From positions 1 to 30,654 of the forward strand of contig CAZMPE010000001.1 in the NCBI GenBank assembly GCA_964567955.1: DNA of 30,654 bases. The letters run 5' to 3'. Positions 2,576 to 30,654 of this stretch are shown here, piece after piece. The translations under genes were made by a program, and so were the position numbers. The stretch is from an uncultured Phycisphaeraceae bacterium. Lineage in GTDB: Bacteria; Planctomycetota; Phycisphaerae; Phycisphaerales; UBA1924. Position 1 is the stretch's first letter, and every line of letters starts with the position of its first letter. A model generated the notes under the pieces. It was not told where the DNA came from. It ran no database searches and worked only from the letters and a program-made list of their open reading frames with translations.

Positions 2576-3757
2576 ATGACTGACCCTCGCGGAGTCCAAG
2601 GTTCAGGCGAGCACCCCGGCAGCGGCGGACGGGCTATCGGCCTCGGCAGCCCGGGAGAGTCCTCCGTTCCGCCCCTCAGCGCCGGCACGCTCTCGGCCGA
2701 AGGGACCGGAGCCGAGCCGCGCGCCGCACGCGAACAGTTCGACGCCGGTGAACTCGCCATGGTCTGCTCCCATTTCGACGTGGGGGTCATCGAGGCCGTC
2801 CGCGAATATCGGCGCGGCTCCAGCCGCGCACCCAAGGTCGCGCTCAAGACGAGCGGGGGCATGTACCTGCTCAAACGCCGCGCCGCCGGCTCGGGCAAGG
2901 ATTCGGCCAACCGCGTCGCTCTGAGCCACGCTGTGCAGGCGCACCTCGCGCAGCGCCGCTTCCCGCTCCCCCGCCTCGTCCGTACGCGCGAGAACGCCTC
3001 GACAAGCCTCGAGCTCAACGGGCGCGTCTACGAGCTCTTTGAGTTCGTCCCGGGCAACGGGTACGACGGCTCGCTCGACGCCACCGGCGACGCCGGCCGG
3101 CTGCTCGCCTTCTTCCACAAGCTCCTCGGCAGCTTCGAAACCCGCTCCTACACGCCCCCGGTCAACACGTTCCACCGCGCCCGGGGCGTGGAGGAGCACC
3201 TGACCCGCGTGGGCGAGAACCTGCTTCAGCGCGCGGGCTCCACCGCGCCCGCCGCGGACCGCCTCCGCATCACCTACACCGACGCCGCCAGGCGCGTGGA
3301 CCGGATCGGCATCGGCGCATGGCCGCTCACCGTGCTCCACGGGGACTGGCACCCTGGGAACATGGTCTTCCGCGGCTCACGCGTCGTCGCCGTGATCGAC
3401 TACGACTCGGTCCGTGTCGCCCCGCGCATCATCGATATCGCCAACGGCGTCATGCAGTTCTCGATCGTCCGGGCCGGCGACGACCCCGAGCGCTGGCCCC
3501 CCCATCTTGACGAGGGGCGGTTCAAGCGATTCTGCCGCGGCTACGAGACCGTCAAGGACTGTGTCATCAGCAGCGCCGAACTCGAGGCCCTTCCCTGGCT
3601 GATGATCGAGGCCCTGATCGTCGAAGCGCTCATCCCCATCGCCGCCACCGGCTCGTTCGCCGGTCACAGCGCCGCCTCCTTCCTCCGCATGGTCGATGTC
3701 AAGACCGCCTGGCTGGCCCAGCACGCCGCGCGACTGACCGCCCTTGTCGGGGATTGA
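2576..3757 (+). CDS. Aminoglycoside phosphotransferase / type II homoserine kinase-like kinase
   Basis: Catalytic loop LHGDWHPGN and metal-binding VIDYD; YLLKRR lysine strand; LFEFVPG hinge. Confidence 0.8.
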   Translation: MTDPRGVQGSGEHPGSGGRAIGLGSPGESSVPPLSAGTLSAEGTGAEPRAAREQFDAGELAMVCSHFDVGVIEAVREYRRGSSRAPKVALKTSGGMYLLKRRAAGSGKDSANRVALSHAVQAHLAQRRFPLPRLVRTRENASTSLELNGRVYELFEFVPGNGYDGSLDATGDAGRLLAFFHKLLGSFETRSYTPPVNTFHRARGVEEHLTRVGENLLQRAGSTAPAADRLRITYTDAARRVDRIGIGAWPLTVLHGDWHPGNMVFRGSRVVAVIDYDSVRVAPRIIDIANGVMQFSIVRAGDDPERWPPHLDEGRFKRFCRGYETVKDCVISSAELEALPWLMIEALIVEALIPIAATGSFAGHSAASFLRMVDVKTAWLAQHAARLTALVGD

Positions 3758-3827
3758 CGCCCGTTCCGGCCGGGCGGAAATACGTAACGGACCTGCAACA
3801 ACCCGTTCCTCCGGGGGCGTTCTCCGG

Positions 3828-3833
3828 TACAAT
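3828..3833 (+). promoter_or_regulatory. Putative sigma70 -10 element (TACAAT) for the PDZ gene
   Basis: TACAAT about 35 nt upstream of GTG 3868, with GGAGG RBS at 3857-3861; -35 not convincing. Confidence 0.45.
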
Positions 3834-3867
3834 CCCGCAGTCCACGCCCTACGACCGGAGGCCGCGC

Positions 3868-4947
3868 GTGACCATCCGCCGCACCGCCCGACTCTTGATC
3901 TTCTGTGCTGCCGTGGCGGTTCCGCCGGTGGCCGGGCAGGTCGGCCCTCCCGCCCTCGATCAACTCGTGTCGGACCTCGATTCCATGGACGCGGCCCGCC
4001 GCCTCCAGGCTACCGGTGTCCTTTCCGACAGCCCGGATCTGGCCCTCAGGGACCTCGAGCCGATCCTGCTCCGCCCCGACCTCTCGCCGGAGCAGCGGAC
4101 CCGCCTTTTGACCGCGGCGAAGAACCGGTTCCAGTCCGAGCCACGCGCCGCTCTCGGCGTCGAGTTCGACATCGAACTCCCCGAAGAAGCGGGCGTTCAT
4201 TTGCGCCGCACCATCCCCGGTTTCGCCGCCGCGGACATCCTGCGGGCCGGCGACCGCATCGATTACGTCGACGGCGTCCGCCTCGCGGGGCGCGAACACA
4301 TTCGCGCGATGATCATCTCGCGCGACCCGGGCGACACACTGTCCCTCGGCGTCCTGCGCAACGGGTCCCTGATCACCGTCGAGGTCCCCTTGGGCCGATT
4401 CCGCGATCTGGACGACCCGCTCTCCGGGCGCAGCGGCAACAGCATGATCGGCGCCGCGCTGGTCCGCGCCTGGGCGATCCGCTCGGAGCCCTACGCCGCA
4501 CTCGAACACGCCAACACACGGACCATCGACAGCGGCCTGACGCCCGCGGCGTGGCAGCCCGACGGCGCGCCGCCGGCCGGGTCCTTCGATGAGCAGCGCC
4601 GCCAGCCGACCGTGGTGATGGGGGGCACAGCCCGCGGCGGAGTCGATCCTCAACAGGTCGATCTCTCTCAGAACTGGACGCCGGGGAGCGGCCGGGTCAA
4701 TCCCGGCGCCAACGGCCGACAAATGGGTCTGGACGAGATCCTCCGAACACGACTGGCCAACAGCCGTCAGCAAAGGGCTCAACTGGCCCAGATCGCCGGC
4801 CTGCTGCGCCGCCAGGTCGAGTCCCCCAACCTGGGCCCCGTCATGCGTGAGAGCCTCAAACGCGATCTCGACCAGTACGAGCAGGCGATCCGAGCCCTGG
4901 ACGCCTCGATCACCGCGATCCAGGACGAACTGATGCGCCGTCGTTAG
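3868..4947 (+). CDS. Secreted PDZ-domain protein with helical N-terminus and coiled-coil C-terminus
   Basis: Signal-like N-terminus; PDZ signature ALGV...PGFAAADILRAGDRIDYVDG...PGDTLSLGVLRNG; GGAGG RBS before GTG 3868. Confidence 0.75.
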   Translation: MTIRRTARLLIFCAAVAVPPVAGQVGPPALDQLVSDLDSMDAARRLQATGVLSDSPDLALRDLEPILLRPDLSPEQRTRLLTAAKNRFQSEPRAALGVEFDIELPEEAGVHLRRTIPGFAAADILRAGDRIDYVDGVRLAGREHIRAMIISRDPGDTLSLGVLRNGSLITVEVPLGRFRDLDDPLSGRSGNSMIGAALVRAWAIRSEPYAALEHANTRTIDSGLTPAAWQPDGAPPAGSFDEQRRQPTVVMGGTARGGVDPQQVDLSQNWTPGSGRVNPGANGRQMGLDEILRTRLANSRQQRAQLAQIAGLLRRQVESPNLGPVMRESLKRDLDQYEQAIRALDASITAIQDELMRRR

Positions 4948-5133
4948 CCCGCCACGCCCCCGGGGAGCCAGGAATGCCCGAAACGTCCGGAAACCGTGGG
5001 GGTGGCGGGGCCAGACCCGGGCGGGCTCCCCGTGCGTATGGAATTCGTGGAGGTGCGGGGGTCGAAGTGCGCCGTTCGGCGCCGCGCCGCCCGATAAGAG
5101 GAGAAGACGGGGAGTTGGAGGAGTCGTTCGCCC

Positions 5134-8100
5134 ATGGCCACCCGTTCTGAGTCCAACCCGCCGGAAACCCGGACCGCGACCGATCCGGCCGCCATCCGGC
5201 CGGTGGCCGAGAGCCTCCGGCGAGTCCGCATCCGCGCCCGGCTCTGGCTCATCACCAGCGCGCTGGCATGGCTCGTGTGCCTGCTGATCGCCGGTGTCCT
5301 GGCGACCTCGTTTGTCGATTACCTCCTGCTGCTGCCCTCGTGGCTGCGCGCCATCGTCCTGGGAATCGGCGCGATAGCCCTCGCAGGCCTGGTCGTCCGC
5401 TGGCTCGTGCCCGCGGTCCGATTCAATCCCAGCCTGACCGAGGTCGCCTTGCGGATCGAACGGACCCCCGAAGGGCAGAACGCGGGGCTCACCGGTGTGC
5501 TCGCGTCGGGCCTCGAGTTGTCCAAAGCCGAATCCGCCGGCCACCCGACCCCCGCCGCACGTTGGATGGCCGGTCGAGTCATCGAGGACGCCGCGAACCG
5601 CTTCCGTCGCTTCCGCGCCTCCGTCGTTCTGAATAACGTCCGGCTGCGCGAGAGCTTCCTGCTGGTGGTCGCGGCGTTGATCGTCGCCGGCGTCGTCGTC
5701 GCGGCGGCGGGCCTGTCCAATACGCAGATCGGACTGACCCGCGTGCTGGCCCCGTGGAGCGGCGTGGACTGGCCGCGCCGCACCGAGGTCGCCGACGCCA
5801 CCAGTTTCGCCGTGCATCCGCTCGGGACGGCCCTTCCGCTGCGTGCCGCCGTCCTCCGGACCGACGCCGCGCCCGGCCAGACGCGCGTCTCGGCCCGGTA
5901 CCGGCTCTACTCGGGCGGCGAGCCGGGCCCGCTCGTCCGCACCGAACTGCCGGCGCAGGACCGCGACATCCGCGTCTCCTCCCCGACCGGGGGCGAGGAT
6001 CAGTGGGGCGAACTTTATGAACGGCTGATCGAGCCCGCGGCCCTCGGCCTGGTGCGCGAGAGGCCCGATGCCGGCGCGAGCGTCGCCGAGCTCGAGTATT
6101 GGTTCGAGACCTCCGATGACCGGACGCCGGCGCGGCGGATCAAGCTGGTCTACCCGCCCACGGTCACCGGGGCCCGGGCCGAGGTCCGGCCGCCCGCGTA
6201 CGCGCCGCTGTCGGATTCGGGCAGGACGGCCCGGGCCGCGTACGTAGCCGGCACGCACGATCTCGGCCAGGGTCACGATCAGCGGGCGATCGTCGCGCCG
6301 GTCCTCGTCGGCTCGAGCATCACGCTCGAGATCGACTTCAGCAAGCCCGTGATCGCTCCCCCGCCGGAGGGCGACGCACGCCGCTCGTTCCTCTCCGCGG
6401 CGCTGCCCGGTGTCGAATTCGGCGCGGCCGCCGCGATGTCGTTCGGCGAAAGCTCCTGGACGATCGAGTGGACGCTCGCCGACTCGATCCGCATCCCCGT
6501 CGCTGCGCGCGACGAGCACGGGCTGACAAGCCCGGACGAATCGGCTTTCTCGTTCGAGGCGTTGCTCGACCGTCCTCCCGCCGCGGTCGTGACCGTCCCC
6601 GACCACGACGAGTCGGTCCTGGCGACGGCGGTGGTGGACGTGACCGGTGAGGGGCGCGACGACGTGTGGATCGAATCGGTCGCGCTGGACGCGCAGATCG
6701 CGCGCAAGCAGGCCGGATCGATCGGCGCCGCGCCGGAGGCCGTGGGCGAGCCAGCGCGTCTCGGCGCCCGTACCTTCGGCGAGACGGAGCGCCCGACCCA
6801 GGCCACCGTCACCGGACGGGCCGACCTTGCCCCCATGGCCCTCAAACCGGGCGACGAACTCTGGATCACCGCCGTCGTGGTCGACGGCTACAACCTCGAC
6901 GGCGCGCGCCACGAGCCCGTGCGTTCCACGCCCCGCCGACTGCGCGTGATCAGCGAGGACGAACTGGTCGGGCAGATCCGCTCCGAACTCGGAAACGTCC
7001 GCCAGGCCGCGATCAGAATCGATGAGGAGCAGGCCGGATTGCAGCAGTCCGCCGCGGCCGGCGAACTCTCGGCCGAGGAGCGGCGCCGCCAGGCGGGCAT
7101 CATCCAGCGGCTCGAGCGCCAGGGTCAGGCCGTCGAACGGATGTCGGAGCGTGCCGCGCGCAACAGCCTGGCCGACGCCTCGCTGACCGGCATGCTGCGC
7201 GATGTCGGTGAACTGCTGCGCGAGGCGGCCGCCTCCGGCGAAAAGGCCGACGCTCGAATCGACGACGCCGCGCGTCGGCTCGAGGAAGAGGAGTTGCTCC
7301 GTCTCACTCCTGAACAGGCCGAGTCGGTGCAGGAGGCGCAGAAGGAAGTCCGCGAGGCCATCGGTCAGGTCATCGAGATGCTCGACAAGGGCGAGGACAG
7401 CTGGGTCGTCCGGCGTGAGCTCCAGCGGCTGCTCGAGCAGCAGCGCGAGCTGCAGGACCGCACCCGCGCCGCCGGCGAGAACACCGTCGGACGATCCGAT
7501 CAGGAACTCACCCCGCAAGAACGCGCGGAACTCGCCGCCATCGCCGAGCAGCAGCAACGCCTCTCCGAACAGGCCCAGCGCGCCCTGGACGCGATGGAGA
7601 ACCGCGCCCAGCAGCTCCGCGAGGCCGACGCCGCGCAGGCCGCCGCCATGCAGCAGGCCGCCGAACGCGGGCGCAAGGGCCAGGTGCCCGAGCGGATGGA
7701 GCAGGCGTCGCGCAGCGCGGCCCAGAATCAGACCGGCGCGGCCCAGGAGCAGCAGCAGCAGGCGATGGACGCGATGGAGCAGATGCTCGACGACATGGAG
7801 AACGCGGAGCGCAACCGCGACGAGTCGCTCCGGCGCCTGCTCTCGAGCCTCATCGAGTCGCTCGACGGCTTGATCCTGCAGCAGGAGGTCGAGCTCGGCC
7901 GGATCACCGCGGCCCGCGACGACGGGTCGGGCTTCGCGGGCCTCGACGCCGGGATGATCCGCGTGAACCAGAACACGCTCGGCGTGCTCGGCGAGGCCAA
8001 GGCCGCCTTCCGCGAGATGGCGAAGGTCGCCGAGCTGATCGAGAACGCCGCCCAGTCGCAGTCCAACGCCGTGACCAGCCTGCGTGCCGATCCCGTGAAG

Positions 8101-8850
8101 GACGAGGAAGCGGAGCAGGCCGAGCAATCCAGCCTGCGGTCCCTCAAGCTCGCCCGCGAAGAGGCCCGGCGTCAGGAGGAGCAGGCCCGACAGCGCGATC
8201 AGGACCGCACGCGCCGCGAGCTGCGCCGCGTCTACCGCGACGCCCTCGAGCAGCAGATCGCGCTCCGCACCGAGACCGCGCCCTTCCTCGGGCGCGAGCC
8301 CGACCGGCGCGACCGCATGAAGATCCGCGCCTTCGGCGAGCGCCAGGAGACACTGCGGCAGACGCTCGCCGATCTCCACCGACGCACCGAGGAGATGTCC
8401 GAAGCACCCATCTTCGATTTCGCGCACCGGCAGCTCGAGCACGTGCTCGGGAACGCCGCCAAGGCGCTCCGCGCCGGCGCCGCCGCGCCCGCCGTCGGAC
8501 GCGACCAGGACGCCGCCGTCCGCATCCTCCAGTCGCTGGTGGAGGCGCTCGCCGACTCCAAGAACCAGAACGACGAGTTCCGCGACGCCGACAGCGGACA
8601 GCAGGGCGGCGGCGGCGACTCGCAACCGCAACCGCTGCTGCCGGACCTCGCGCAGCTCCGGCTGCTCCGCGGCATGCAGATCCAGGCCGCGGAACTGACG
8701 AGGGCGCTGCACGAATCCAGCGACCCCCGCGCGAAGGACGACATCCGGGCGCTCGGCGAGCTCCAGGGCGAGCTGGCGAGCCAGGCCGAGTCGCTCCTCC
8801 GGAAACTCGAAAGCCCGCAGCCCGGCGAGATGCCGGCGGGAGGGCCGTGA
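5134..8850 (+). CDS. Large membrane-anchored coiled-coil protein (DUF4175-like), 1238 aa
   Basis: Three N-terminal hydrophobic helices, beta-rich middle (RPPAYA, DRPPAAVVTVP, LKPGDEL), long E/Q/R/A coiled-coil C-terminal half; GGAGGAG RBS. Confidence 0.75.
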   Translation: MATRSESNPPETRTATDPAAIRPVAESLRRVRIRARLWLITSALAWLVCLLIAGVLATSFVDYLLLLPSWLRAIVLGIGAIALAGLVVRWLVPAVRFNPSLTEVALRIERTPEGQNAGLTGVLASGLELSKAESAGHPTPAARWMAGRVIEDAANRFRRFRASVVLNNVRLRESFLLVVAALIVAGVVVAAAGLSNTQIGLTRVLAPWSGVDWPRRTEVADATSFAVHPLGTALPLRAAVLRTDAAPGQTRVSARYRLYSGGEPGPLVRTELPAQDRDIRVSSPTGGEDQWGELYERLIEPAALGLVRERPDAGASVAELEYWFETSDDRTPARRIKLVYPPTVTGARAEVRPPAYAPLSDSGRTARAAYVAGTHDLGQGHDQRAIVAPVLVGSSITLEIDFSKPVIAPPPEGDARRSFLSAALPGVEFGAAAAMSFGESSWTIEWTLADSIRIPVAARDEHGLTSPDESAFSFEALLDRPPAAVVTVPDHDESVLATAVVDVTGEGRDDVWIESVALDAQIARKQAGSIGAAPEAVGEPARLGARTFGETERPTQATVTGRADLAPMALKPGDELWITAVVVDGYNLDGARHEPVRSTPRRLRVISEDELVGQIRSELGNVRQAAIRIDEEQAGLQQSAAAGELSAEERRRQAGIIQRLERQGQAVERMSERAARNSLADASLTGMLRDVGELLREAAASGEKADARIDDAARRLEEEELLRLTPEQAESVQEAQKEVREAIGQVIEMLDKGEDSWVVRRELQRLLEQQRELQDRTRAAGENTVGRSDQELTPQERAELAAIAEQQQRLSEQAQRALDAMENRAQQLREADAAQAAAMQQAAERGRKGQVPERMEQASRSAAQNQTGAAQEQQQQAMDAMEQMLDDMENAERNRDESLRRLLSSLIESLDGLILQQEVELGRITAARDDGSGFAGLDAGMIRVNQNTLGVLGEAKAAFREMAKVAELIENAAQSQSNAVTSLRADPVKDEEAEQAEQSSLRSLKLAREEARRQEEQARQRDQDRTRRELRRVYRDALEQQIALRTETAPFLGREPDRRDRMKIRAFGERQETLRQTLADLHRRTEEMSEAPIFDFAHRQLEHVLGNAAKALRAGAAAPAVGRDQDAAVRILQSLVEALADSKNQNDEFRDADSGQQGGGGDSQPQPLLPDLAQLRLLRGMQIQAAELTRALHESSDPRAKDDIRALGELQGELASQAESLLRKLESPQPGEMPAGGP

Positions 8851-8851
8851 C

Positions 8852-9547
8852 ATGAGAGCGAACACGCTGATGGCCGGGCTCGCGGCGATCCTGATCGGCG
8901 CCTCCGGCGCGATGGGGCAGGAAGCGCCGACGCCCCCCGCGCCGCCGCCGGCCGAGCCGCCCAGGGACGAGCTGCCGACGCTCGACGATCTGCTCGGTCT
9001 CCCGCAAGCGCCCGACGCCGCCCGTCGCACGCCGGGAACGGACCCGGCGTCGACGGAACTCGAGCGCAAGCTGTCGATGCGCGAAGCCGCGCAGCAATTC
9101 AAGCAGGCCGTCGTGCTCATGAGCGAAACGGCCGACCGCATCCGCGGCGCGGGCGATACCGGCATCGCCACCCAGCGCCTGCAGGAGGATGTGGTCCGCA
9201 AGCTCGACATGCTGATCCAGGCCGCGGAGCAGAACTCGCAGCAGAGCCAGCAGTCCTCCTCGTCCTCGTCCTCCGGCGACCCCGACCGGCAGAGCCAGCC
9301 CAACCAGCAGCGCCCCGAGCAGGGCGAGCAGCAGCAGAACCAGGGCGACAACCGTGCCGAGGCGACCCCGCCGGGACGCGCCGAGGGCGCGCTCGACCCC
9401 AACCTCGCCGCACGCGGCGCCGCCTGGGGCTCGCTGCCCGCGCGGGTGCGCGACGCCCTGATGCAGGGCACGCAGGAGCAGTACAGCTCGGTCTACCAGC
9501 GCCTGACCGAGGCCTATTACCGCAAACTCGCGGAGTCCCCGAAATGA
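8852..9547 (+). CDS. Secreted Gln/Ser-rich hypothetical protein with conserved C-terminal WGxLP...Y...YY..LA helix
   Basis: Signal peptide (MRANTLMAGLAAILIGASGAMG), helical hairpin, low-complexity QS tract; starts 1 nt after upstream stop. Confidence 0.75.
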   Translation: MRANTLMAGLAAILIGASGAMGQEAPTPPAPPPAEPPRDELPTLDDLLGLPQAPDAARRTPGTDPASTELERKLSMREAAQQFKQAVVLMSETADRIRGAGDTGIATQRLQEDVVRKLDMLIQAAEQNSQQSQQSSSSSSSGDPDRQSQPNQQRPEQGEQQQNQGDNRAEATPPGRAEGALDPNLAARGAAWGSLPARVRDALMQGTQEQYSSVYQRLTEAYYRKLAESPK

Positions 9548-10639: not shown

Positions 10640-11863
10640 ATGAACCATCCGTCTGTTCGAGCCCGGTCCCTGGTCGTGTGCGCCGCCGCGCTCGGCGCCG
10701 CGTCGTACGCCGGAGCGCAGAGCGCCCCGCGCATCCTGCTCGACCGCGACCTGCGCGAGCGCACCGTCACGCTGACAGGCCTGGACAACCGGACCATCAC
10801 CTACAGCGACGAGTCCGGCCTGCTCCGCACCGAGTCCGTCTCCGAGTACGTCGCCGTCCTCGCGCCCGCGGCGCCCGACGTGCCCGAGGGAACGTCCATG
10901 ATCTGGTTCACCGACGGCCGGCGGCTCACCGGTTCGGTCCGCCCCGCCGAGGGAGACGCGCTCAACTGGTCGCATCCCGTTTTCGGAGTCGTCCGTGTCC
11001 GCCTCGACGATGTCCGGCGCCTCTTCCTCGCCGACGCCGCGCCCGCCGCGGCAAAGCCGGAGCCCCCGCAGGGCGAAGACCTGATCGTGCTCCTGAACGG
11101 CGATCGCCTGACCGGTTTCGTGGATTCCATCGGCTCGCCGATCGTCCTCGAGGTCGGGGGCCAGCCGCGCGAGATCCCGCTCGATCGCGTCGCGGAGGTG
11201 CGCCTGGCCAACCCGATCGCGCGTGCCCGCGGCATGACGGTCTGGCTCGCCGACGGCAGCGCCGTGGGCGTCGCCTCGATCCGCACGAACCGCGCGGGCG
11301 AGACGCGCATCGTCCCGCGATGGAACGCCAACGCCGAGGACCCCCGCCAGCCCACCGAATCGCCCGAGGACCCCGGCGCCGCGGTCCCGCTCGCCGACAT
11401 CATCGCCGTCGCCTTCGACGCCGAGCGGCTGATCCCGCTGGCCTCGACGCCCGTGCGTGACCAGCGCCCCGCCGCCGGGCGCCCGTGGGCCGAGTCGATC
11501 TCGACGGGCGACGCCGCCTCGGCCCTTCTCGGCGCGCCCGATGTCATCCTTCCCGGCCCGATGACCGTCGAGTGGGACCTGCCCGCCTCCGCTTCGCGCT
11601 TCGGCTGCACGGTCGAACTGCCCAGCGCCATGCGGACGTGGGGCGATTGCGAACTGGTGGTGTCCATCGTGGGCGCGGACGGAAAGAGTTCCGAGGTCTT
11701 CCGGCGGCGCCTGAACGCCGACGCCCCGACCGCCTCGGTCAACGTCGCGCTCAAGGGCTCGTCGCGCCTGCGCATCGCGGTCGAGGCGGGCGAGTACGGC
11801 CCGATCCAGGACCGCCTCGTGCTGCACCGGGCACTCGTGCTCGTCGACCGCTCGCCCGGCTAA
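10640..11863 (+). CDS. Secreted protein with repeated small beta modules and C-terminal NPCBM/NEW2-like domain
   Basis: Signal peptide; repeats IWFTDGRRLTG / IVLLNGDRLTG / VWLADGS; C-terminal RFGCTVE...WGDCELVV...DG...VNVALKG...LRIAVEAG..G...D pattern of NPCBM. Confidence 0.6.
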   Translation: MNHPSVRARSLVVCAAALGAASYAGAQSAPRILLDRDLRERTVTLTGLDNRTITYSDESGLLRTESVSEYVAVLAPAAPDVPEGTSMIWFTDGRRLTGSVRPAEGDALNWSHPVFGVVRVRLDDVRRLFLADAAPAAAKPEPPQGEDLIVLLNGDRLTGFVDSIGSPIVLEVGGQPREIPLDRVAEVRLANPIARARGMTVWLADGSAVGVASIRTNRAGETRIVPRWNANAEDPRQPTESPEDPGAAVPLADIIAVAFDAERLIPLASTPVRDQRPAAGRPWAESISTGDAASALLGAPDVILPGPMTVEWDLPASASRFGCTVELPSAMRTWGDCELVVSIVGADGKSSEVFRRRLNADAPTASVNVALKGSSRLRIAVEAGEYGPIQDRLVLHRALVLVDRSPG

Positions 11864-13035
11864 CGCATCTTGATCGAGGTCAGCGCGATCACCACCAGCA
11901 GAACGCTGATGATCCAGAATCGCGCGACCACCTGCTGCTCCGTCCACCCGCCCAGGTGCAGGTGATGGTGGTACGGCGCGCAGCGGAAGATCCGCTTCCC
12001 GCCCGACGCCTTGAAATACGCGACCTGCAGCGTCACCGACGCGATCTCCGCCAGGAAGACGCCGCACATCACCAGCAGCACCACCTCCTGCCGGATCACC
12101 ACCGCCCCGTACCCCAGCAGCCCGCCGAGGCACAGCGACCCCGTGTCCCCCATGAAGACCTGCGCCGGCGAACAGTTCCACCACAGGAACCCCAGGCTCG
12201 CCCCGACCATCGCCCCGCAGACCACCGCCAGCTCGTCGGCGCGATAGATGTACGGCACCAGCAGCGTCTGCGCCGCCGCCTGGTCGCCCGCGATCAGCGT
12301 CAGCACCAGCAGACCCAGACCGACCGCCACCGTCACGCCGGACGCCAGCCCGTCCATCCCGTCCGTGATGTTCACCGCGTTGCTCATCCCCGCCGTCATC
12401 AGCACCGCGATCAAGATGAACACGCCCTGCGGCAGGAAGATCAGCGCCGGGTTGAGCGTCGCCGCCTTGTCGAGGTACGTCTTCTGGAACGGCAGGTTGA
12501 GCACGTGCGCCAGGTCCGCCGCCGTCCCCGGCGAATCCCCCGCGCGATAGGCGAACATCCCGATCAGCAGGCCCAGGCCGATCTGAAAGACCAGCTTCTC
12601 CCACGCGTACAGGCCCTGCCGGCTCTTGAGCCCGCGCCGGGCCGAGGTCAGCTTCAGCCAGTCATCCACCCCTCCAAGGACCGCCAGCCAGACCAGCACG
12701 ATCAGCGCCGTGTAGACGTAGAAGTGGCTGATGTCCGCCAGCAGCAGCACCGACGCCCCGATCGCCCCCGCGATCAGGATGCCGCCCATCGTCGGCGTGT
12801 TCGCCTTGGACACCGCGCTCTTGCGCAGCGCCTCCGCGTCCGTCAGCCCCGTGTCGCCGATCTTCATCTTCGTCAGCCACGCGATCGTCCGCCGGCCGAA
12901 GAAGATCACGATCAGGAACGCGAGAAACGCCGCCGCCAGCGCCCGGAACTGGATCTGGTCGAGAATCTGCAGCGCCCACAGCAGATCGTGGTCGGCCAGC
13001 CAGTCGCGGATCTTGTCGTAGAGGATGTACAGCAT
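11860..13035 (-). CDS. mraY: Phospho-N-acetylmuramoyl-pentapeptide transferase
   Basis: TPTMGG, DDWLK, NAVNITDGMDGLA, FMGDTGSLCLG, APYHHHL motifs; multiple TM helices. Confidence 0.97.
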   Translation of the reverse strand: MLYILYDKIRDWLADHDLLWALQILDQIQFRALAAAFLAFLIVIFFGRRTIAWLTKMKIGDTGLTDAEALRKSAVSKANTPTMGGILIAGAIGASVLLLADISHFYVYTALIVLVWLAVLGGVDDWLKLTSARRGLKSRQGLYAWEKLVFQIGLGLLIGMFAYRAGDSPGTAADLAHVLNLPFQKTYLDKAATLNPALIFLPQGVFILIAVLMTAGMSNAVNITDGMDGLASGVTVAVGLGLLVLTLIAGDQAAAQTLLVPYIYRADELAVVCGAMVGASLGFLWWNCSPAQVFMGDTGSLCLGGLLGYGAVVIRQEVVLLVMCGVFLAEIASVTLQVAYFKASGGKRIFRCAPYHHHLHLGGWTEQQVVARFWIISVLLVVIALTSIKMR

Positions 13036-13061
13036 GAAAGGCCGGCGCCACGAGCCGGAAG

Positions 13062-14483
13062 TCAGCCCGGGCCGGTCAGACTATCACGGGCACGCAACGC
13101 CGCGGCGACCCGCTCCAGGCGCATCCGGCGTGACCCTTTGAGCAGCACGGTGTCCCCCGGGCGCAGCACGTCCGCCGCGGCCGCCACGTGGACGTCGTCG
13201 GTGTCGGCGATCACGATCGCCCCGGTGTCGCCCACGGCCCTGGCCGCACGGGCCATGTTCGGGCCCACCAGCACCAGCAGGTCCGCCGCACCGCGCCCGC
13301 GGATCTCCCGGATCAGGTCCTCGTGCGCGCCGTCGGAGTGCTCGCCCAGCTCGAGCATGTCCCCCAGGACGGCGACACGCCGCCCGCCGCCGATGTCGTT
13401 GAGCGTGATGATCGCGGCCGCCATCGAGTCGGGGTTGGCGTTGTACGCGTCGTTGATCACCCGCACGCCGTGGATCGTCGAAGATTCCAGCCGCATCTCC
13501 GCCCCGCGCACCGCGTCCAGCCCCGCCTGCAGCGCCCCGTTCTCCACTCCGAACCGCCGGCCCACCGCGATCGCCGCCGTCGCATTGAGCGCGTTGTGCC
13601 GCCCGAGCAGCGGCACGCGGAACGCCCCGCGCTCGTTCACCGTGAACGTCACTCCCGACCCGTCCTGCCGGACGTCCCCGGCCCGCAGGTCCGCGCCGCT
13701 CCCCGTCCCGAACGTCACCAGGTTGAACGGCGCCCGACCGTCCGGACCCGCCCTGAACCGCTCGCCGATCACCTCCAGCAGGAACGGCGCGTCGGCGTTG
13801 ACGACGGCCAGCCCGCCCTGGCGCAGCGACGCCAGCTGCGAGGCCTCCTCCTCCGCCACGCCGCGCAGCGACGACAGGCCTTCGAGGTGCTCGCGCCCGA
13901 CCCCGGTGATGACCGCCACATCAGCGCCGACCACCCGAGCCAGCTCGTCCACTTCGCCGGGCGCGTTCGTCCCGACCTCGCACACCAGGTACTGGTCGCC
14001 CGGACGCGCCCCGAAGATCGTCAGCGGCACGCCCACGTGGTTGTTGAAGCTCTTCACCGACGCCGACCCGCGCAGCCCGCGCGACAGGATCGCGTCGATC
14101 AGCCGCGACGTCGTCGTCTTCCCGTTCGAGCCCGTCACCGCGATCACCCGCGTGCCGTCCAGCGTCTTGCGGTACGCCGCGCCCAGCTTCAGAAGCGCAC
14201 GGCGCGTCCCGGCGACCCGCAGCACGCCGCAGTTGGGCGCCACCGGCGAATCCGGCGCCTCCTCGACGATCGCCAGCGCCGCACCCGCCCGCGCCGCATC
14301 GCCCACGTGCAGGTGCCCGTCCGTGCGATCTCCACGGATCGCCACGAAGATCTGCCCCGGCTTGATCGCGCGGCTGTCGGTGCTCACGGCGGGGTGGGGG
14401 TCCAGCGCCCGCGCCGACGCCGGCCGGGCCAGCCAGGTCCCGCCGAGCACGGCCCGGATGTTGTCAAACTCCCAGAAGCTCAT
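13062..14483 (-). CDS. murF: UDP-N-acetylmuramoyl-tripeptide--D-Ala-D-Ala ligase
   Basis: STDSR, AVTGSNGKTTT P-loop, SFNNHVGVPLT, NDAYNANPDSM, VLGDMLELG, LLKGSR. ATG 14483 overlaps the murE stop (ATGA). Confidence 0.96.
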   Translation of the reverse strand: MSFWEFDNIRAVLGGTWLARPASARALDPHPAVSTDSRAIKPGQIFVAIRGDRTDGHLHVGDAARAGAALAIVEEAPDSPVAPNCGVLRVAGTRRALLKLGAAYRKTLDGTRVIAVTGSNGKTTTSRLIDAILSRGLRGSASVKSFNNHVGVPLTIFGARPGDQYLVCEVGTNAPGEVDELARVVGADVAVITGVGREHLEGLSSLRGVAEEEASQLASLRQGGLAVVNADAPFLLEVIGERFRAGPDGRAPFNLVTFGTGSGADLRAGDVRQDGSGVTFTVNERGAFRVPLLGRHNALNATAAIAVGRRFGVENGALQAGLDAVRGAEMRLESSTIHGVRVINDAYNANPDSMAAAIITLNDIGGGRRVAVLGDMLELGEHSDGAHEDLIREIRGRGAADLLVLVGPNMARAARAVGDTGAIVIADTDDVHVAAAADVLRPGDTVLLKGSRRMRLERVAAALRARDSLTGPG

Positions 14484-16084
14484 GCTCGACGGCCGCCCCT
14501 CGCCCGGACACCCGCCGCCTTCGCGGGCCGGCGCGTCACGATGACCGGCTTGCGCGCGCCCGGCCTGGCTCGCTTCACGGGCGCAAGCAGTTCCCGCGCG
14601 ACCTCGCGATCGTCGAAGTGCGTCCTGATCGTCCCCCCCTTGCCGTCGGAGAGGATCTGGTCGGTCTCGTGCCCCTTGCCCGCGATCAGGACGACGTCGC
14701 CCGCGCGCGCATCGGCGATCGCCCGCGCGATCGCGCTCCTCCGGTCGGCGTCGACAACCGTTCCCCTCCGCTGGCGCGCCGGCACGCCCGCGATGATCTC
14801 GTCGATGATCGCCGACGGCTCCTCCGTCCGCGGATTGTCGCTGGTGATGTACACCGCGTCCGCTAGCTCCGCCGCCGCCGCGCCCATCCGCGCCCGCTTC
14901 GTCCGGTCGCGGTCCCCGCCGCATCCGAAGACGACCCGCAGCGTGCCGCCCTTGTCCATCAGCGGACGGATCGCCCCCAGCACCTGCCGCAGCGCGTCAT
15001 CGGTGTGCGCGTAGTCCACGAGGACGGAATACGGATGGCGCGCCCCGGTCACCACCTCCAGCCGCCCCGGCGGCGCCGCCGCGTGCTCAAGAGCCTCAGC
15101 GATATCCGCCGTCTTCACGCCCGCGCCGTGACACGCCGCCGCCGCCTGCAGCGCATTCATCACGTTGTGACGCCCGACCAGCGGCAACAGGCAGGTGATC
15201 GCCCCCCACGGGCCGGCAAAGGCCGCCCGCGTACCCGCCATGGTCATCGCTCTGATCGACGCGCGGCACTCGCCCGCCTTCACCTTGCGTCCGACCGCCG
15301 CGCCGATCGTGCACCGCAGCACCGGCGCCCGGCAGTCGCGGATCATCCGCGCCGACGCCCGATCGTCCGCGTTCACGATCGCCAGCCCGTTCTCCGGAAG
15401 CATCGCGAACAGCTTCGCCTTCGCGTCCGCGTACTTCTCCATCGTCCCGTGGTAGTCGAGGTGGTCCCCCGTCAGGTTCGTGAAGACACCGATCTTGAAC
15501 GCCAGCGCCGCCGGCCGCTCCTGGTCCAGCGCGTGACTCGAGACCTCCATCACCGCCGCGCGGCAGCCGGAATCCACCATCACCCCGAACGTGCGGCTCA
15601 GCTCCGTCGCCGGCGGCGTGGTCAGGATCGACGGCGCGATTTCAGCGCCGTCGTCGATCAGCACGGTCCCCATCAGCCCGCAGCGCACCCCGCACCGGTT
15701 GAGGATCTGGTGGATCAGGTGCGCCGTCGTCGTCTTCCCGTTCGTCCCGGTCACCCCGATCAGCGTCAGTCGCCCGGAGGCGGAGCCATAGAACCGCTCC
15801 GCGATCTGCGCCGCCGCCAGCTCGACGCCCGTGCCGGCCAGCAGCAGCGCCGCACCGGACCCCTCCGGAAGCCGGAGCGACCGGTCATCCGTCAGCACCG
15901 CGACCGCGCCCGCGTCCAGCGCCGCCCGCACGAACTCCCGCCCGTCGGCCTTCTGGCCCGTCCGCGCGATGAAGAGCGAACCGGTCACCACCGTCCGGCT
16001 GTCGTCCGTGATGTCGCAGATGCGGATCGCGCCGGCGGCGGCCGTACGGATGTTCAGTCCCGCGATCAGGTCGGCGAGCATCAT
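14480..16084 (-). CDS. murE: UDP-N-acetylmuramoyl-L-alanyl-D-glutamate--2,6-diaminopimelate ligase
   Basis: GVTGTNGKTTT, MEVSSHALDQ, FTNLTGDHLDYH, VDYAHT, VFGCGGDRD, SDNPR, IAGKGHE. Confidence 0.97.
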   Translation of the reverse strand: MMLADLIAGLNIRTAAAGAIRICDITDDSRTVVTGSLFIARTGQKADGREFVRAALDAGAVAVLTDDRSLRLPEGSGAALLLAGTGVELAAAQIAERFYGSASGRLTLIGVTGTNGKTTTAHLIHQILNRCGVRCGLMGTVLIDDGAEIAPSILTTPPATELSRTFGVMVDSGCRAAVMEVSSHALDQERPAALAFKIGVFTNLTGDHLDYHGTMEKYADAKAKLFAMLPENGLAIVNADDRASARMIRDCRAPVLRCTIGAAVGRKVKAGECRASIRAMTMAGTRAAFAGPWGAITCLLPLVGRHNVMNALQAAAACHGAGVKTADIAEALEHAAAPPGRLEVVTGARHPYSVLVDYAHTDDALRQVLGAIRPLMDKGGTLRVVFGCGGDRDRTKRARMGAAAAELADAVYITSDNPRTEEPSAIIDEIIAGVPARQRRGTVVDADRRSAIARAIADARAGDVVLIAGKGHETDQILSDGKGGTIRTHFDDREVARELLAPVKRARPGARKPVIVTRRPAKAAGVRARGGRRA

Positions 16085-16159: not shown

Positions 16160-17251
16160 TCAGGGCAGGATCAGCATGGCGTCCCCGAAACTGTAGAACC
16201 GGTACCGGGCCGCGATCGCCGCCGCGTAGATCTCCCGCACCCGCTCCACACCCCCGGGGAAGAGCGCCGCCACCATCGCCAGCAGCGTCGACCGCGGCAG
16301 GTGGAAGTTCGTCAGCAGCCCGTCGGTCCACCGCCACGCGTACCCCGGCGTGATCAGCAGCCGCGTCTCCATCGCCTCCCCCATCGGTCGCGCCGCCGCG
16401 AACGACTCGACCGTCCTCGCCGACGTCGTCCCGACGCAGATGACGCGCCGCCCGCCCGCCCGGGCCGCCTCCACCGCCGCGCACGCCCCCGACGACATCC
16501 CGCACCACTCCGAGTGCATCCCGTGCTGCTCGACGAACTCGGCCGAGACCGGCAGGAACGTCCCCGTCCCGACATGCAGCGTCACGTCCACCCGTTCGAC
16601 ACCCGTACGAGCCAGGCTCTCCAGCAGGCCCGCCGTGAAGTGCAGCCCCGCCGTCGGTGCCGCCACCGACCCGGGCGCCCGCGCGTACACCGTCTGGTAC
16701 CGCTCCCGGTCGGTCGAGTCACCGACCGTCATGCCCGCCGATCGGCGAGCCTTCAAGATGTACGGCGGCAGCGGCGTCCACCCCGCCCGCTCGAGCGCCG
16801 CCGCGCCGGTCTCGCCCGGCGCACCCCGCACCCGGACCGCCCACGCTCCGCGCTCCTCCGCCTTCGCCGCCAGTTCAAGCGTCACTCCGCAGGCCCGCTC
16901 CGACGCATCGAGCAGCTCGACGGTGACGCCCGCGCGCAAGCTCTTGCCCTGCAGCATCGCCACCCATTCTTCCGCCGTGCCCGCCGGCGGGTGCAGACAC
17001 AACCCCTCGACCCGTCCGCCCGTGTCCGCCCGCCGCCCGACCAGCCGCGCCGGCACCACGCGCGTCGAGTTGAACACCAGGCAATCGCCCGCTCGCAGCA
17101 GCGACGGCAGGTCGCGCACACGCCGGTGCTCCAGCCGCGACGAGTCCGAGCGGCTCACCACCAGCAGCCGGGCGCTGTCGCGCGGCTCGACCGCCGTCGT
17201 CGCGATCAGCTCCTGCGGCAGGTCATAGTCAAGATCGGAGGTCCGCAGCAC
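16160..17251 (-). CDS. queA: S-adenosylmethionine:tRNA ribosyltransferase-isomerase
   Basis: DYDLPQELIA, VFNSTRVVPARL, PLPPYI, YQTVYA, GSVAAPTAGLHFT, TLHVGTGTF, VGTTS, TNFHLPRSTL, FYSFGDAMLI. Confidence 0.97.
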   Translation of the reverse strand: MLRTSDLDYDLPQELIATTAVEPRDSARLLVVSRSDSSRLEHRRVRDLPSLLRAGDCLVFNSTRVVPARLVGRRADTGGRVEGLCLHPPAGTAEEWVAMLQGKSLRAGVTVELLDASERACGVTLELAAKAEERGAWAVRVRGAPGETGAAALERAGWTPLPPYILKARRSAGMTVGDSTDRERYQTVYARAPGSVAAPTAGLHFTAGLLESLARTGVERVDVTLHVGTGTFLPVSAEFVEQHGMHSEWCGMSSGACAAVEAARAGGRRVICVGTTSARTVESFAAARPMGEAMETRLLITPGYAWRWTDGLLTNFHLPRSTLLAMVAALFPGGVERVREIYAAAIAARYRFYSFGDAMLILP

Positions 17252-25983: not shown

Positions 25984-26862
25984 TCAAGCGCGACGCCGGC
26001 GGGCGCCGAACAGTCCGGCGAGGCCGAGCAGCGCAACGGCCGAAGGAGCCGGGATGATGGACACATTGTCCCAGGCCAACGCGTTGCGATTGCCGTTGCC
26101 CGAGTTCGTGCCGCCGAACAGCCGGAAGCCGGTCGGCGTCGGGGCTCCGGCCGCGCCGCCGAAGAGGTATCGGTCAACAGGATTGTGCACGACCGTCGTG
26201 TTGGTCGTCAGATCCGTGATCGAGACGCTCAGAATCTGATTGGTGCCCAGATCGAACGTCGTGCCCCACCGGTACCAGTGGTCCATCGCCAGGTTCTGGA
26301 AGGCCGGGTCGGGCACCGACTCCGTCAGCTGCGTGCCCGCGGCGTTGAACCAGACGTAGTCGGCGTTCCAGGCGCCGCCCGTGGCCGTGTTGGCCCAGCG
26401 GGCCAGGCCGATGAACGACTGCTGCCCGGGAAAGACCTGCGTGGAAAAGCTCCCGATGTTCTGGGAGAACGGGGCTCCCGCTCCCAGGAGGGCCGTCGCG
26501 GCCGCGATATCAAAGGACGCCGTCCAGACGCCGGTGCCTGATCCGTACGTGATGTCCCGCTGCGCCCGCGAGAACGGCTGCGGCAACCCCTGCGCCGGGT
26601 CGGCCCCGATGGAGGCCGCGAACTGCGTGCCGCCAGTCGGATTCAGCGGAAGCCCCAGGGCGTTGCCGGCGTAGGTCATCACCAGGCCGTCCTGGCTTCC
26701 CGCGACCGGGATGTAGAACCCGTCCTGCCCCGTCAGGACAGTGCCGGCGGGCGATCCAGCGTAGGTGTTCGGCTCAAACCCCGTGGTGAACTGGGCCTGG
26801 GCCTCGCTGCCTAGCGCGACGGCCAGCGCAAGAACAAACGGACTCGAGAATCGAACGGTCAT
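25984..26862 (-). CDS. Secreted PEP-CTERM-like (IPAP) protein, paralogue 2 (292 aa)
   Basis: AAAGGAGGAG RBS, signal peptide ending AQA, C-terminal IPAPSAVALLGLAGLFGARRRRA. Confidence 0.85.
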   Translation of the reverse strand: MTVRFSSPFVLALAVALGSEAQAQFTTGFEPNTYAGSPAGTVLTGQDGFYIPVAGSQDGLVMTYAGNALGLPLNPTGGTQFAASIGADPAQGLPQPFSRAQRDITYGSGTGVWTASFDIAAATALLGAGAPFSQNIGSFSTQVFPGQQSFIGLARWANTATGGAWNADYVWFNAAGTQLTESVPDPAFQNLAMDHWYRWGTTFDLGTNQILSVSITDLTTNTTVVHNPVDRYLFGGAAGAPTPTGFRLFGGTNSGNGNRNALAWDNVSIIPAPSAVALLGLAGLFGARRRRA

Positions 26863-27146
26863 GTTCTCCTCCTTTGGCAAGTCGCCAAACCGTCCGGCAG
26901 CGGCGCTCCCGGACATCTTGTCTCTCTTTGGACTGTAACGCGCGCCCCTGATCGGCCCCAAAGGAAATGCGCCCGCAAGATCGGAAAATCCTGCGCCCGC
27001 GCCCTTTGTTCGGGCCCTGCTTACGAGGTGTTGGGCAGAAGTTTGCAGCTCGATGATGACGCCGCGCACAGCACGATTCCGGACTTCGCGATCGAGTTCG
27101 ACCCCGCCGCCCGATTCACGCCGGACCCCGCATCCATCCGGTCCGC

Positions 27147-28264: not shown

Positions 28265-29131
28265 TCAGGCGCGGCGGCGACGACCGGCGAAGAGACCGCC
28301 GAGGGCGAGCATCGCCATCGAAGCCGGGGCCGGAATGATCTCAAAGTTGTCGAAGCCGAAGACGTGGATGTTGTTCGCGCCGCCGCCCGCGAAGAAGCGG
28401 ACGTCCGTCGGAATCGCCTGCGTCGGGTTCGCCCCGCCCGCCAGGTACCAGCCCATGGCCGAAACATCGACGACGACGGGCGCGGCCGCGTCGTGCAGGT
28501 TGTCGATCGACACCGACAGAATCTGGTTCGTGGTGAAGTCCCACGTCGTCGACTGGCGGTACCACGTGTTCAAGCGGAGCGCATCCCAGTCCGGGCCGGG
28601 GAGCGTGTTGGCCTGCTGAACGCCCGCCGCGTTGAAGAACACGTAGTTCGCGTCGTAGGCGTTGCCCGTGGCCAGGTTGTCCCAGGTGTACAGCGTCTGC
28701 CAGAACCGCGAGGTCGCCGACGGCTGCAGCGAGAAGCTGCCCAGGTTGTTGATCGCCGGCAGGACGCCGCCGAACCGGTCAAAGTTGATGTCGAACGACG
28801 CCGTGTACGTGGTGTTGGACAGGAAGTTGATCGCGTGCTGCGCACGACCGAAGCCGGAGGCGCCGAAGTTCTGAACCGCGGCGAACTGGGCGTTGCCGGT
28901 CGGGTTGTTCACCAGACCCACCGCGTTCCCCGCGTAGGTGAAGACCTTGCCGTCCGTGCTGCCGTTGACCGGGTTGTACCACCCGTCCTGGCCGCCGCCG
29001 CCGAACCCGTTGGTCAGCGCGGTGCCCGCGGCGGAACCCGCGTAGGTCGGGGGCTCAAAGTTGGTGGCGTACTGCGCCTGAGCCGCGCCCGTCAGCGCCA
29101 AGCCCGCGACAATCGTGACTGCTTTGAACAT
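28265..29131 (-). CDS. Secreted PEP-CTERM-like (IPAP) protein, paralogue 3 (288 aa)
   Basis: GGAGAG RBS, signal peptide ending AQA, C-terminal IPAPASMAMLALGGLFAGRRRRA. Confidence 0.85.
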   Translation of the reverse strand: MFKAVTIVAGLALTGAAQAQYATNFEPPTYAGSAAGTALTNGFGGGGQDGWYNPVNGSTDGKVFTYAGNAVGLVNNPTGNAQFAAVQNFGASGFGRAQHAINFLSNTTYTASFDINFDRFGGVLPAINNLGSFSLQPSATSRFWQTLYTWDNLATGNAYDANYVFFNAAGVQQANTLPGPDWDALRLNTWYRQSTTWDFTTNQILSVSIDNLHDAAAPVVVDVSAMGWYLAGGANPTQAIPTDVRFFAGGGANNIHVFGFDNFEIIPAPASMAMLALGGLFAGRRRRA

Positions 29132-30012: not shown

Positions 30013-30654
30013 TCAGTTCCCCCCGTCCTTGCGGAGCAGTTCGATCTGGCCCTGCCGCGCCTCATCGATCGCCTCGCCGAGGATCCGCGCGGCCTCCTGC
30101 GGCGCGTGGAAGCCCATCGAGTTCTCGGCGTTGATGAAGTCCACGCGGTACTGCGCCTTGCGCTGGAGCGCGCGGGCCTCCGCGAGATGCGCGTCCGGAA
30201 CCCCGCGGGCCATGGCCTGCTCGAGCTCGCCGATCAGGCCGACGACCGCGTCGAGGGCGCGGTCCATGAGCTGCTTGGTGCGGTCCTGCACCGCGAACAC
30301 GCGCTCCTTGATCTCGTCCTCGCCGTAGCGGTGGCACACCTGGCAGGCCTTCGAGACGTTGAGGAGCGGGCTGCGGACGTGGTGGTCGCTGATCTTCATC
30401 GCGCCCTCCCTCACGTAGGGCATGTGGCAGTCGGCGCAGGAGACGCCGGAGCGCGCGTGGATGCCTTGGCTCCACAGCTCGAACTCCGGGTGCTGCACCT
30501 TGATGACGTCGGCGCCGCTGATCTTGTGCTTGAAGTCGGAGAAGGGCGCGCCATCGGAGAACTTGTACTCCGCGTAGTAGGCCTCCATCGCCTCGGCCTT
30601 CACGCCTTTGTGCCACGGGAAGAAGAGGAGCGCCTTCGAGGCGCAGTAGTACTC
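30013..30654 (-). CDS. nrfA: Ammonia-forming cytochrome c nitrite reductase c552 subunit, C-terminal part (gene starts right of window)
   Basis: Open frame to window edge: [22 protein letters not shown] (KxQH diagnostic motif), heme motifs CADCH and [23 protein letters not shown]. Confidence 0.92.

Follow-up and report, generated by a model that had tools for sequence, protein, structure and literature searches.

The window, as the whole 30,654-nucleotide stretch of DNA analysed here is called, ends inside a cytochrome c nitrite reductase gene in which a Cys stands two residues after the catalytic Tyr (Tyr+2). This raises the question of whether a pentahaem NrfA forms the Tyr-Cys bond known from octahaem nitrite reductases (ONRs), or whether the Cys serves another purpose or none. 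Whether nitrite stays in soil in the form of ammonium or escapes as a gas is decided by NrfA. The CXXCH clade of pentahaem NrfA (Welsh 2014) is described as monophyletic and taxonomically diverse and is reported to make up about 90% of soil nrfA placements, yet it contains few isolates, and hardly any of its enzymes have been studied (Saghai et al. 2023, PMC10716430). TvNiR, an octahaem enzyme, has its catalytic Tyr bonded to the Cys at +2, and the bond has been proposed to improve proton donation (PMC12285233, PMC6209398); a 2025 review lists this link as one of three differences between the octahaem and pentahaem enzymes (PMC12285233).

A nrfA gene fragment at the window edge

Reverse-complement translation of positions 30013-30654 yields 213 codons plus a stop on the minus strand, with coding sequence from 30654 to 30016 and the stop codon at 30013-30015. 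The open frame runs off the right window edge, and its first residues are E-Y-Y-C. An earlier note, made from the letters alone, had reported EYYC at this edge (14 residues at 30613-30654) and named no strand; translation of the minus strand bears the motif out, including the Cys codon at 30643-30645, which is TGC and appears as GCA on the plus strand. The features of the fragment are as follows.

30013..30654, minus strand: 3' part of nrfA, identified by translation, the PF02335 match and best PDB matches to pentahaem NrfAs
30643..30654, minus strand: E-Y-Y-C (Ca2+-ligand Glu, catalytic Tyr, variable Tyr, Cys at Tyr+2), in the columns of E. coli E215-Y216-Y217-F218 and TvNiR E302-Y303-N304-C305
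30541..30558, minus strand: S-D-G-A-P-F insertion with conserved Gly and Phe, limited to the Cys-bearing subtype, the Phe lying in the TvNiR Phe344 column
30490..30501, minus strand: K-V-Q-H (Ca2+ ligands Lys, by its backbone carbonyl, and Gln; catalytic His), in the columns of E. coli K261/Q263/H264 and TvNiR K358/Q360/H361
30424..30438, minus strand: haem 4 motif CADCH, from translation, aligned with haem 4 of all NrfAs
30331..30345, minus strand: haem 5 motif CQVCH, from translation, aligned with haem 5 of all NrfAs

The fragment matches PF02335 (Cytochrom_C552) over profile positions 181-381 of 438, with 255.5 bits (gathering score 24.1) and E 1.2e-75, and its best PDB matches are pentahaem NrfAs (W. 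succinogenes NrfA, E 1.9e-47), indicating that EYYC sits in a real conserved gene and is no chance string. Octahaem nitrite reductases reached only about 1e-22 in the same search of solved structures. Five Cys are present, namely the four haem Cys and that of EYYC, and the catalytic and Ca2+-site residues E1, Y2, K52, Q54 and H55 fall in the columns of E. coli E215, Y216, K261, Q263 and H264, with a Tyr-to-His spacing of 53 residues in this subtype. Judged from these matches, the protein at the window end is almost certainly NrfA, represented by its C-terminal 213 residues; NrfA is the catalytic subunit in the membrane-associated, ammonia-forming cytochrome c nitrite reductase NrfH-NrfA.

Haems 1-3, including the CxxCHV expected before EYYC, the catalytic Arg, any membrane anchor or signal and the region upstream of the gene lie beyond position 30654. 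An exact 45-mer search of metagenome contigs, aimed at the missing 5' part, had no match, no identical record of the mscL product exists, and sequencing reads matching 30250-30654 gave nothing but short stretches of other nrfA genes at the conserved haem 4. The closest database relative of the fragment is 75% identical and the nearest relatives range from 59 to 75%, so the five-haem, CxxCH architecture ascribed to this gene is taken from relatives of at most 75% identity, the window itself containing haems 4 and 5. Against the NCBIfam equivalog for canonical NrfA (NF008339/TIGR03152), the fragment scores 193.9 bits with a cut-off of 595, and for P0271, a full-length relative, the scores on the canonical equivalogs are 221.9 (cut-off 595) and 163 (cut-off 692.5); scores so far below the cut-offs in full-length proteins fit a divergent subtype.

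Haem content and operon context of the relatives

Three sets of relatives were compared. The first comprised the best 120 database matches to the fragment, every one of them a fragment. Among these, 104 have the haem-3 to haem-4 spacing of 78 that marks the subtype, and 103 of the 104 carry Cys at Tyr+2 (101 CxxCH-V-EYYC, 2 TYYC); the remaining protein, P0036, has ESYS in place of EYYC and is a counter-example to conservation of the Cys within the subtype. The second set was drawn from 197 genomic loci in species-representative genomes, which gave 102 unique full-length Cys-bearing sequences after de-duplication (101 EYYC, one TYYC). All 102 have five haem motifs with CxxCH at haem 1 (CLHCH, CLQCH and similar), and among the complete Cys-bearing genes of this set none has CxxCK or eight haem motifs. 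The third set, 120 further full-length Anaeromyxobacter-like proteins, likewise has five haems and CxxCH at haem 1 in 120/120 (86 EYYC, 34 EYFC). In that genus A. dehalogenans is a proven ammonifier; the Anaeromyxobacter matches obtained here were MAGs. In complete relatives a single residue, nearly always Val, separates the haem-3 CxxCH from E-Y-Y/F-C, in agreement with the CxxCHV context expected in the earlier note.

Several side observations concern these sets. The best 120 matches (P0001-P0120) are all at most 372 aa long, and in many of them the start is an internal Met shortly ahead of haem 3. Their truncation is mostly explained by short contigs, and some cases lie on contigs of 38-89 kb; if those long-contig fragments sit at contig ends, nrfA may be a frequent assembly break point. 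In addition, the T-Y-Y-C sequences of L008, P0019 and P0033 have Thr for the Ca2+-ligand Glu, as in Ca2+-independent Geobacter NrfAs, and keep the Cys.

The occurrence of CxxCH at haem 1 throughout the relatives most probably places the window's gene in the known CXXCH clade and not with canonical Lys-ligated NrfA, and by analogy with C. jejuni NrfA the catalytic haem of the encoded enzyme is probably ligated by the His of that motif. In 157 of 190 locus records, the ORF immediately upstream of nrfA is tetrahaem with CxxCHxM as its first motif; a contig end cuts most of the remaining records. Three examples of this ORF pass the cut-off of the equivalog TIGR03153 (159-166 bits against 134) for NrfH, a tetrahaem quinol dehydrogenase of the NapC/NirT type. 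The search for nrfH proposed in the earlier note thus came out positive in the relatives, and there is a high probability that the window's gene is the nrfA of an nrfHA operon of the CXXCH clade.

These data also bear on the reading that the gene is an ordinary ONR whose first haems happen to lie outside the window. The N-terminal part is absent from the window, and the ONR family is defined partly by an active-site Cys (PMC5433712). All relatives of sufficient length, however, have five motifs with CxxCH at the catalytic haem, against the order 3xCxxCH-CxxCK-4xCxxCH of ONRs, and in published ONRs EYNC or EYSC precedes a long loop, a combination of EYYC with a short loop never occurring among them. 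An AlphaFold model of a full-length relative (pLDDT 82, pTM 0.82) gave TM scores of 0.61-0.73 to pentahaem NrfAs versus 0.58 to ONRs. The chance that the gene is an ONR is therefore close to nil, and the preference of the earlier note for a pentahaem enzyme stands, complete relatives having five haem motifs and never eight, and the fragment being closest to pentahaem NrfAs. In terms of database matches, ONR identity is effectively refuted (pentahaem E 1e-47 versus octahaem 1e-22).

The enzyme might mainly serve NO, hydroxylamine or nitrite detoxification, or sulfite reduction, instead of respiratory nitrite ammonification, with the Cys adapting the site to its substrate. In catalytic triad, Ca2+ site and nrfH partner it nevertheless agrees with nitrite-ammonifying NrfAs, and the sole natural CxxCH enzyme to have been characterised reduces nitrite to ammonium with high activity. 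NO, hydroxylamine and sulfite are also substrates of NrfAs, some of which have a role in detoxification (PMC12285233, PMC13562315); moreover, full-length relatives reach 222 bits against the canonical equivalog cut-off of 595, and neither a nitrate reductase nor any other nitrogen-cycle gene is found in the window, whose remaining genes are housekeeping. On balance, such a main role seems improbable. The gene downstream of nrfA in the window is mscL and not nrfBCD. The capacity of the organism for dissimilatory nitrate reduction to ammonium (DNRA), which the earlier note had deduced, is not demonstrated: its basis is a 3' fragment of nrfA in a window with no other nitrogen-cycle gene.

Position of the Cys at the active site

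An alignment of 133 unique full-length NrfAs with E. coli NrfA and TvNiR lines the window Cys up with TvNiR Cys305 and with Phe218 of E. coli, and the register is unambiguous because no gap occurs from the haem-3 motif to the Cys. The reference numbering used in the earlier note proved accurate for both enzymes. In E. coli K-12 NrfA (L198), the haem-3 motif CGQCH at 209-213 is followed by V214-E215-Y216-Y217-F218, which verifies Glu215, Tyr216 and Phe218; the published TvNiR chain reads CAQCHV-E302-Y303-N304-C305, with K358, Q360 and H361 further on (PMC5433712 S1 Appendix), so that Tyr303 is followed by Cys305 at the Phe position, as the alignment also indicates.

The surroundings of the Cys are those of a standard NrfA site. 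Arg106, Tyr216, His264 and Lys261 (E. coli numbering) do not vary among the relatives, Glu215 and Gln263 are both kept in 101 of the 102 EYYC-set sequences, and the proximal Lys126 is replaced by His in all EYYC sequences of the alignment. In the structural model, E-Y-Y lies in a beta-strand paired with the following L-x-F-P-W strand, a geometry in which Tyr (i) and Cys (i+2) would face the same side.

Conservation of the Cys and its covariation with an insertion

In the third set the residue between Tyr and Cys drifts (86 Tyr, 34 Phe), whereas the Tyr and the Cys are constant in 120/120. Exactly 11 Cys, the ten haem Cys and that at Tyr+2, occur in 89/102 and 116/120 full-length proteins of the second and third sets, respectively; with 11 Cys and no partner, an intrachain disulfide is excluded.

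When EYYC and EYYF NrfAs with CxxCH at haem 1 were compared, only three alignment columns separated them: the Cys itself, an inserted Gly and an inserted Phe. The insertion has Gly in 100/102 and Phe in 99/102 of the EYYC set and is a gap in 30/30 EYYF sequences, and the haem-3 to haem-4 spacing is 77-79 residues in the former and 73-74 in the latter and likewise in E. coli. TvNiR has Phe344 where the inserted Phe aligns, in a similar local context (xxF-FDWKH versus IDF-FDFRH), and we suggest that the inserted Phe may fill the space of the lost Phe218 ring. The active-site description in the earlier note was thus right in the position of the Cys and missed the covarying Gly/Phe insertion.

When representatives of 50%-identity clusters were sampled across the family, Cys at Tyr+2 went together with CxxCH at haem 1 in 4/4 determinable cases, to which nine partial sequences can be added, and was found in 0/18 representatives with CxxCK, which have Phe, Leu or Val there instead. 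The comparison with canonical NrfA in which the earlier note had framed the motif consequently does not hold, since every Cys-bearing relative has CxxCH at haem 1 and none of the 18 CxxCK sequences has the Cys.

Conservation, lack of a partner and covariation with the insertion are together evidence, at the level of aligned sequences, for a functional Cys at Tyr+2. This has to be weighed against the view that the Cys is a tolerated small substitute for Phe218, with the loop Phe filling the space and no catalytic meaning. A neutral site would drift, and the Cys is invariant across many phyla while its neighbour varies; furthermore, extra Cys are generally selected against in multihaem c-type cytochromes. 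What speaks for neutrality is that Val, Ile or Leu is tolerated at this position in other family members and that the covarying Phe could be mere packing compensation. Overall, a Cys without catalytic meaning has little probability.

As a separate observation, the EYYF-type CxxCH NrfAs (loci L018-L080) have an unpaired Cys of their own in 58% of cases, at alignment column 237 between haems 1 and 2, compared with 11% of the EYYC type; this column is a gap in E. coli and Ser in TvNiR.

A putative Tyr-Cys thioether

We propose that a Tyr-Cys thioether forms in EYYC-type NrfA, and on the analogy with TvNiR we give this reading a probability of roughly 0.55. [quoted passage not shown] Proper placement of a Cys alone is no guarantee of a Tyr-Cys bond, and the bond-forming chemistry might differ because the catalytic haem is probably His-ligated here and Lys-ligated in TvNiR.

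The main competitor is a Cys that remains unbonded next to the catalytic Tyr, as a thiol or thiolate, and acts, for instance, in hydrogen bonding or proton relay, as a switch sensitive to redox state or NO, or as a carrier of persulfide. That it is strongly conserved with no partner Cys shows that there is a function and not which one, and no report of the bond in any pentahaem enzyme was found within the PDB and literature searched. The register, on the other hand, is the same as the C-x-Q-C-H-V-E-Y-x-C of TvNiR, in which the structure shows the bond, and published ONR sequences carry EYNC or EYSC at the same site. A free thiol near a redox-active haem in the oxidising periplasm is, moreover, prone to modification. 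A lasting free thiol is rather unlikely in our judgement, while the thioether remains the preferred reading.

The PDB copies searched contain no pentahaem structure with CxxCH at haem 1 or with Cys at Tyr+2, and a text search of the literature returned nothing relevant on the EYYC motif or on Tyr-Cys in pentahaem NrfA. The expectation in the earlier note that the motif is clade-wide and uncharacterised is thus in line with the data, given the Cys in 103 of 104 subtype fragments and no characterisation in the literature and PDB searched. The CXXCH clade is known, as is the Tyr-Cys link in octahaem enzymes; the Cys-bearing pentahaem subtype is undescribed within the same PDB and literature searches.

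Distribution, phylogeny and significance

A scan of 185,579 species genomes for CxxCHVEYYC found such genes in at least 120 species-level genomes. The matches listed include Planctomycetota, Acidobacteriota, Myxococcota, Gemmatimonadota, Verrucomicrobiota, Marinimicrobia, Latescibacterota, Chlorobiaceae, Gammaproteobacteria and others, and the cultured carriers among them include Geothrix fuzhouensis, Geothrix rubra and Pontiella sulfatireligans. The CXXCH clade is monophyletic with 92% bootstrap in a neighbour-joining (NJ) tree, and inside it the monophyly of EYYC (8%) and of EYYF (28% NJ bootstrap) is in neither case reliable. TvNiR is about 30% identical to the EYYC and EYYF groups alike and no closer to either. 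Common ancestry with ONRs and convergence are both compatible with these data as origins of the Cys in EYYC NrfA.

An invariant Cys at the TvNiR site in a broad, multi-phylum part of the CXXCH clade challenges the octahaem/pentahaem distinction drawn in reviews. We tentatively suggest, at somewhat less than even odds, that the EYYC enzymes may be a mechanistically distinct and environmentally dominant class of pentahaem NrfA that combines a His-ligated catalytic haem with a Tyr-Cys cofactor, the cross-link being a recurrent solution, ancestral or convergent, for tuning the proton-donating Tyr and possibly compensating for the loss of the Lys. If this is true, much of the nitrate ammonification in soil would pass through a never-studied active site, and the cross-link would be no octahaem peculiarity. 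E-Y-Y/F-C together with the Gly/Phe insertion also provides a simple sequence marker by which environmental nrfA could be split into functional subtypes.

Other genes in the window

Two paralogous secreted proteins flank corA (25984-26880 and 28265-29131, both on the minus strand; 48% identical, E 9e-65). Each has a signal peptide and a C-terminal tail of the form IPAP...hydrophobic...RRRRA resembling a PEP-CTERM sorting signal, and no Pfam match. A 1238-aa ORF at 5134-8850 on the plus strand shows a strong coding signal (third-position GC 0.90) and no Pfam domain; the antisense 1935-aa ORF at 3664-9471 that overlaps it is probably a high-GC artefact. An mraY-like GT4 gene, murF and murE lie together at 11860-16084 on the minus strand without the rest of the division/cell-wall cluster, and with starts taken from the longest ORFs, murF and murE overlap by about 440 bases, which makes it probable that one start is called too far upstream. 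QueA (16160-17251, minus strand) is at most 54% identical to any species-representative genome, the best match being a Planctomycetota MAG, and the source organism seems to represent a deep lineage in which no close relative has been sequenced.

Comparison with known enzymes

The thioether proposed here has counterparts outside the multihaem cytochromes. In galactose oxidase, cysteine dioxygenase and the NirA sulfite reductase, a thioether from a Cys sulfur to a Tyr ring tunes a catalytic Tyr near a redox metal. These enzymes have unrelated folds and metals, and their Tyr and Cys are far apart in sequence and not in an i/i+2 arrangement.

Among the pentahaem enzymes, canonical CxxCK NrfAs (E. 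coli, W. succinogenes, S. deleyianum, Shewanella, Desulfovibrio) share with the window's subtype the fold, the arrangement of haems 2-5, the triad and the Ca2+ site. They differ in haem 1, which is Lys-ligated and depends on a dedicated haem lyase, and in having Phe at Tyr+2 without the Gly/Phe insertion; E. coli NrfA differs further in its partner, which is NrfBCD and not NrfH. With the CXXCH clade, the window's relatives share five haems, CxxCH at haem 1, nrfH, the Arg/Tyr/His triad and the Ca2+ site. C. jejuni NrfA (CjNrfA) is a natural CxxCH enzyme in which the motif His is the proximal ligand and which has high nitrite-to-ammonium activity (Hermann et al. 2026, PMC13562315). Its Tyr-to-His spacing is about 100 residues and no cross-link is reported for it (PMC13562315), whereas the window's subtype has a spacing of 53, Cys for Phe and the Gly/Phe insertion. 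P0241, a CjNrfA-like representative, has EYYF and a spacing of 101 residues, and CjNrfA, the only solved natural CxxCH NrfA, thus appears to be of the EYYF type.

At the active site itself, there is a parallel in TvNiR and the other ONRs (PDB 2OT4 and others), which have the same C-x-Q-C-H-V-E-Y-x-C register, Arg/Tyr/His and Ca2+ ligands, and a Phe aligned with the inserted Phe of the EYYC subtype. ONRs are distinguished by eight haems, a CxxCK (Lys) catalytic haem, EYNC or EYSC with a long loop, a hexameric assembly and an identity of only about 30%.
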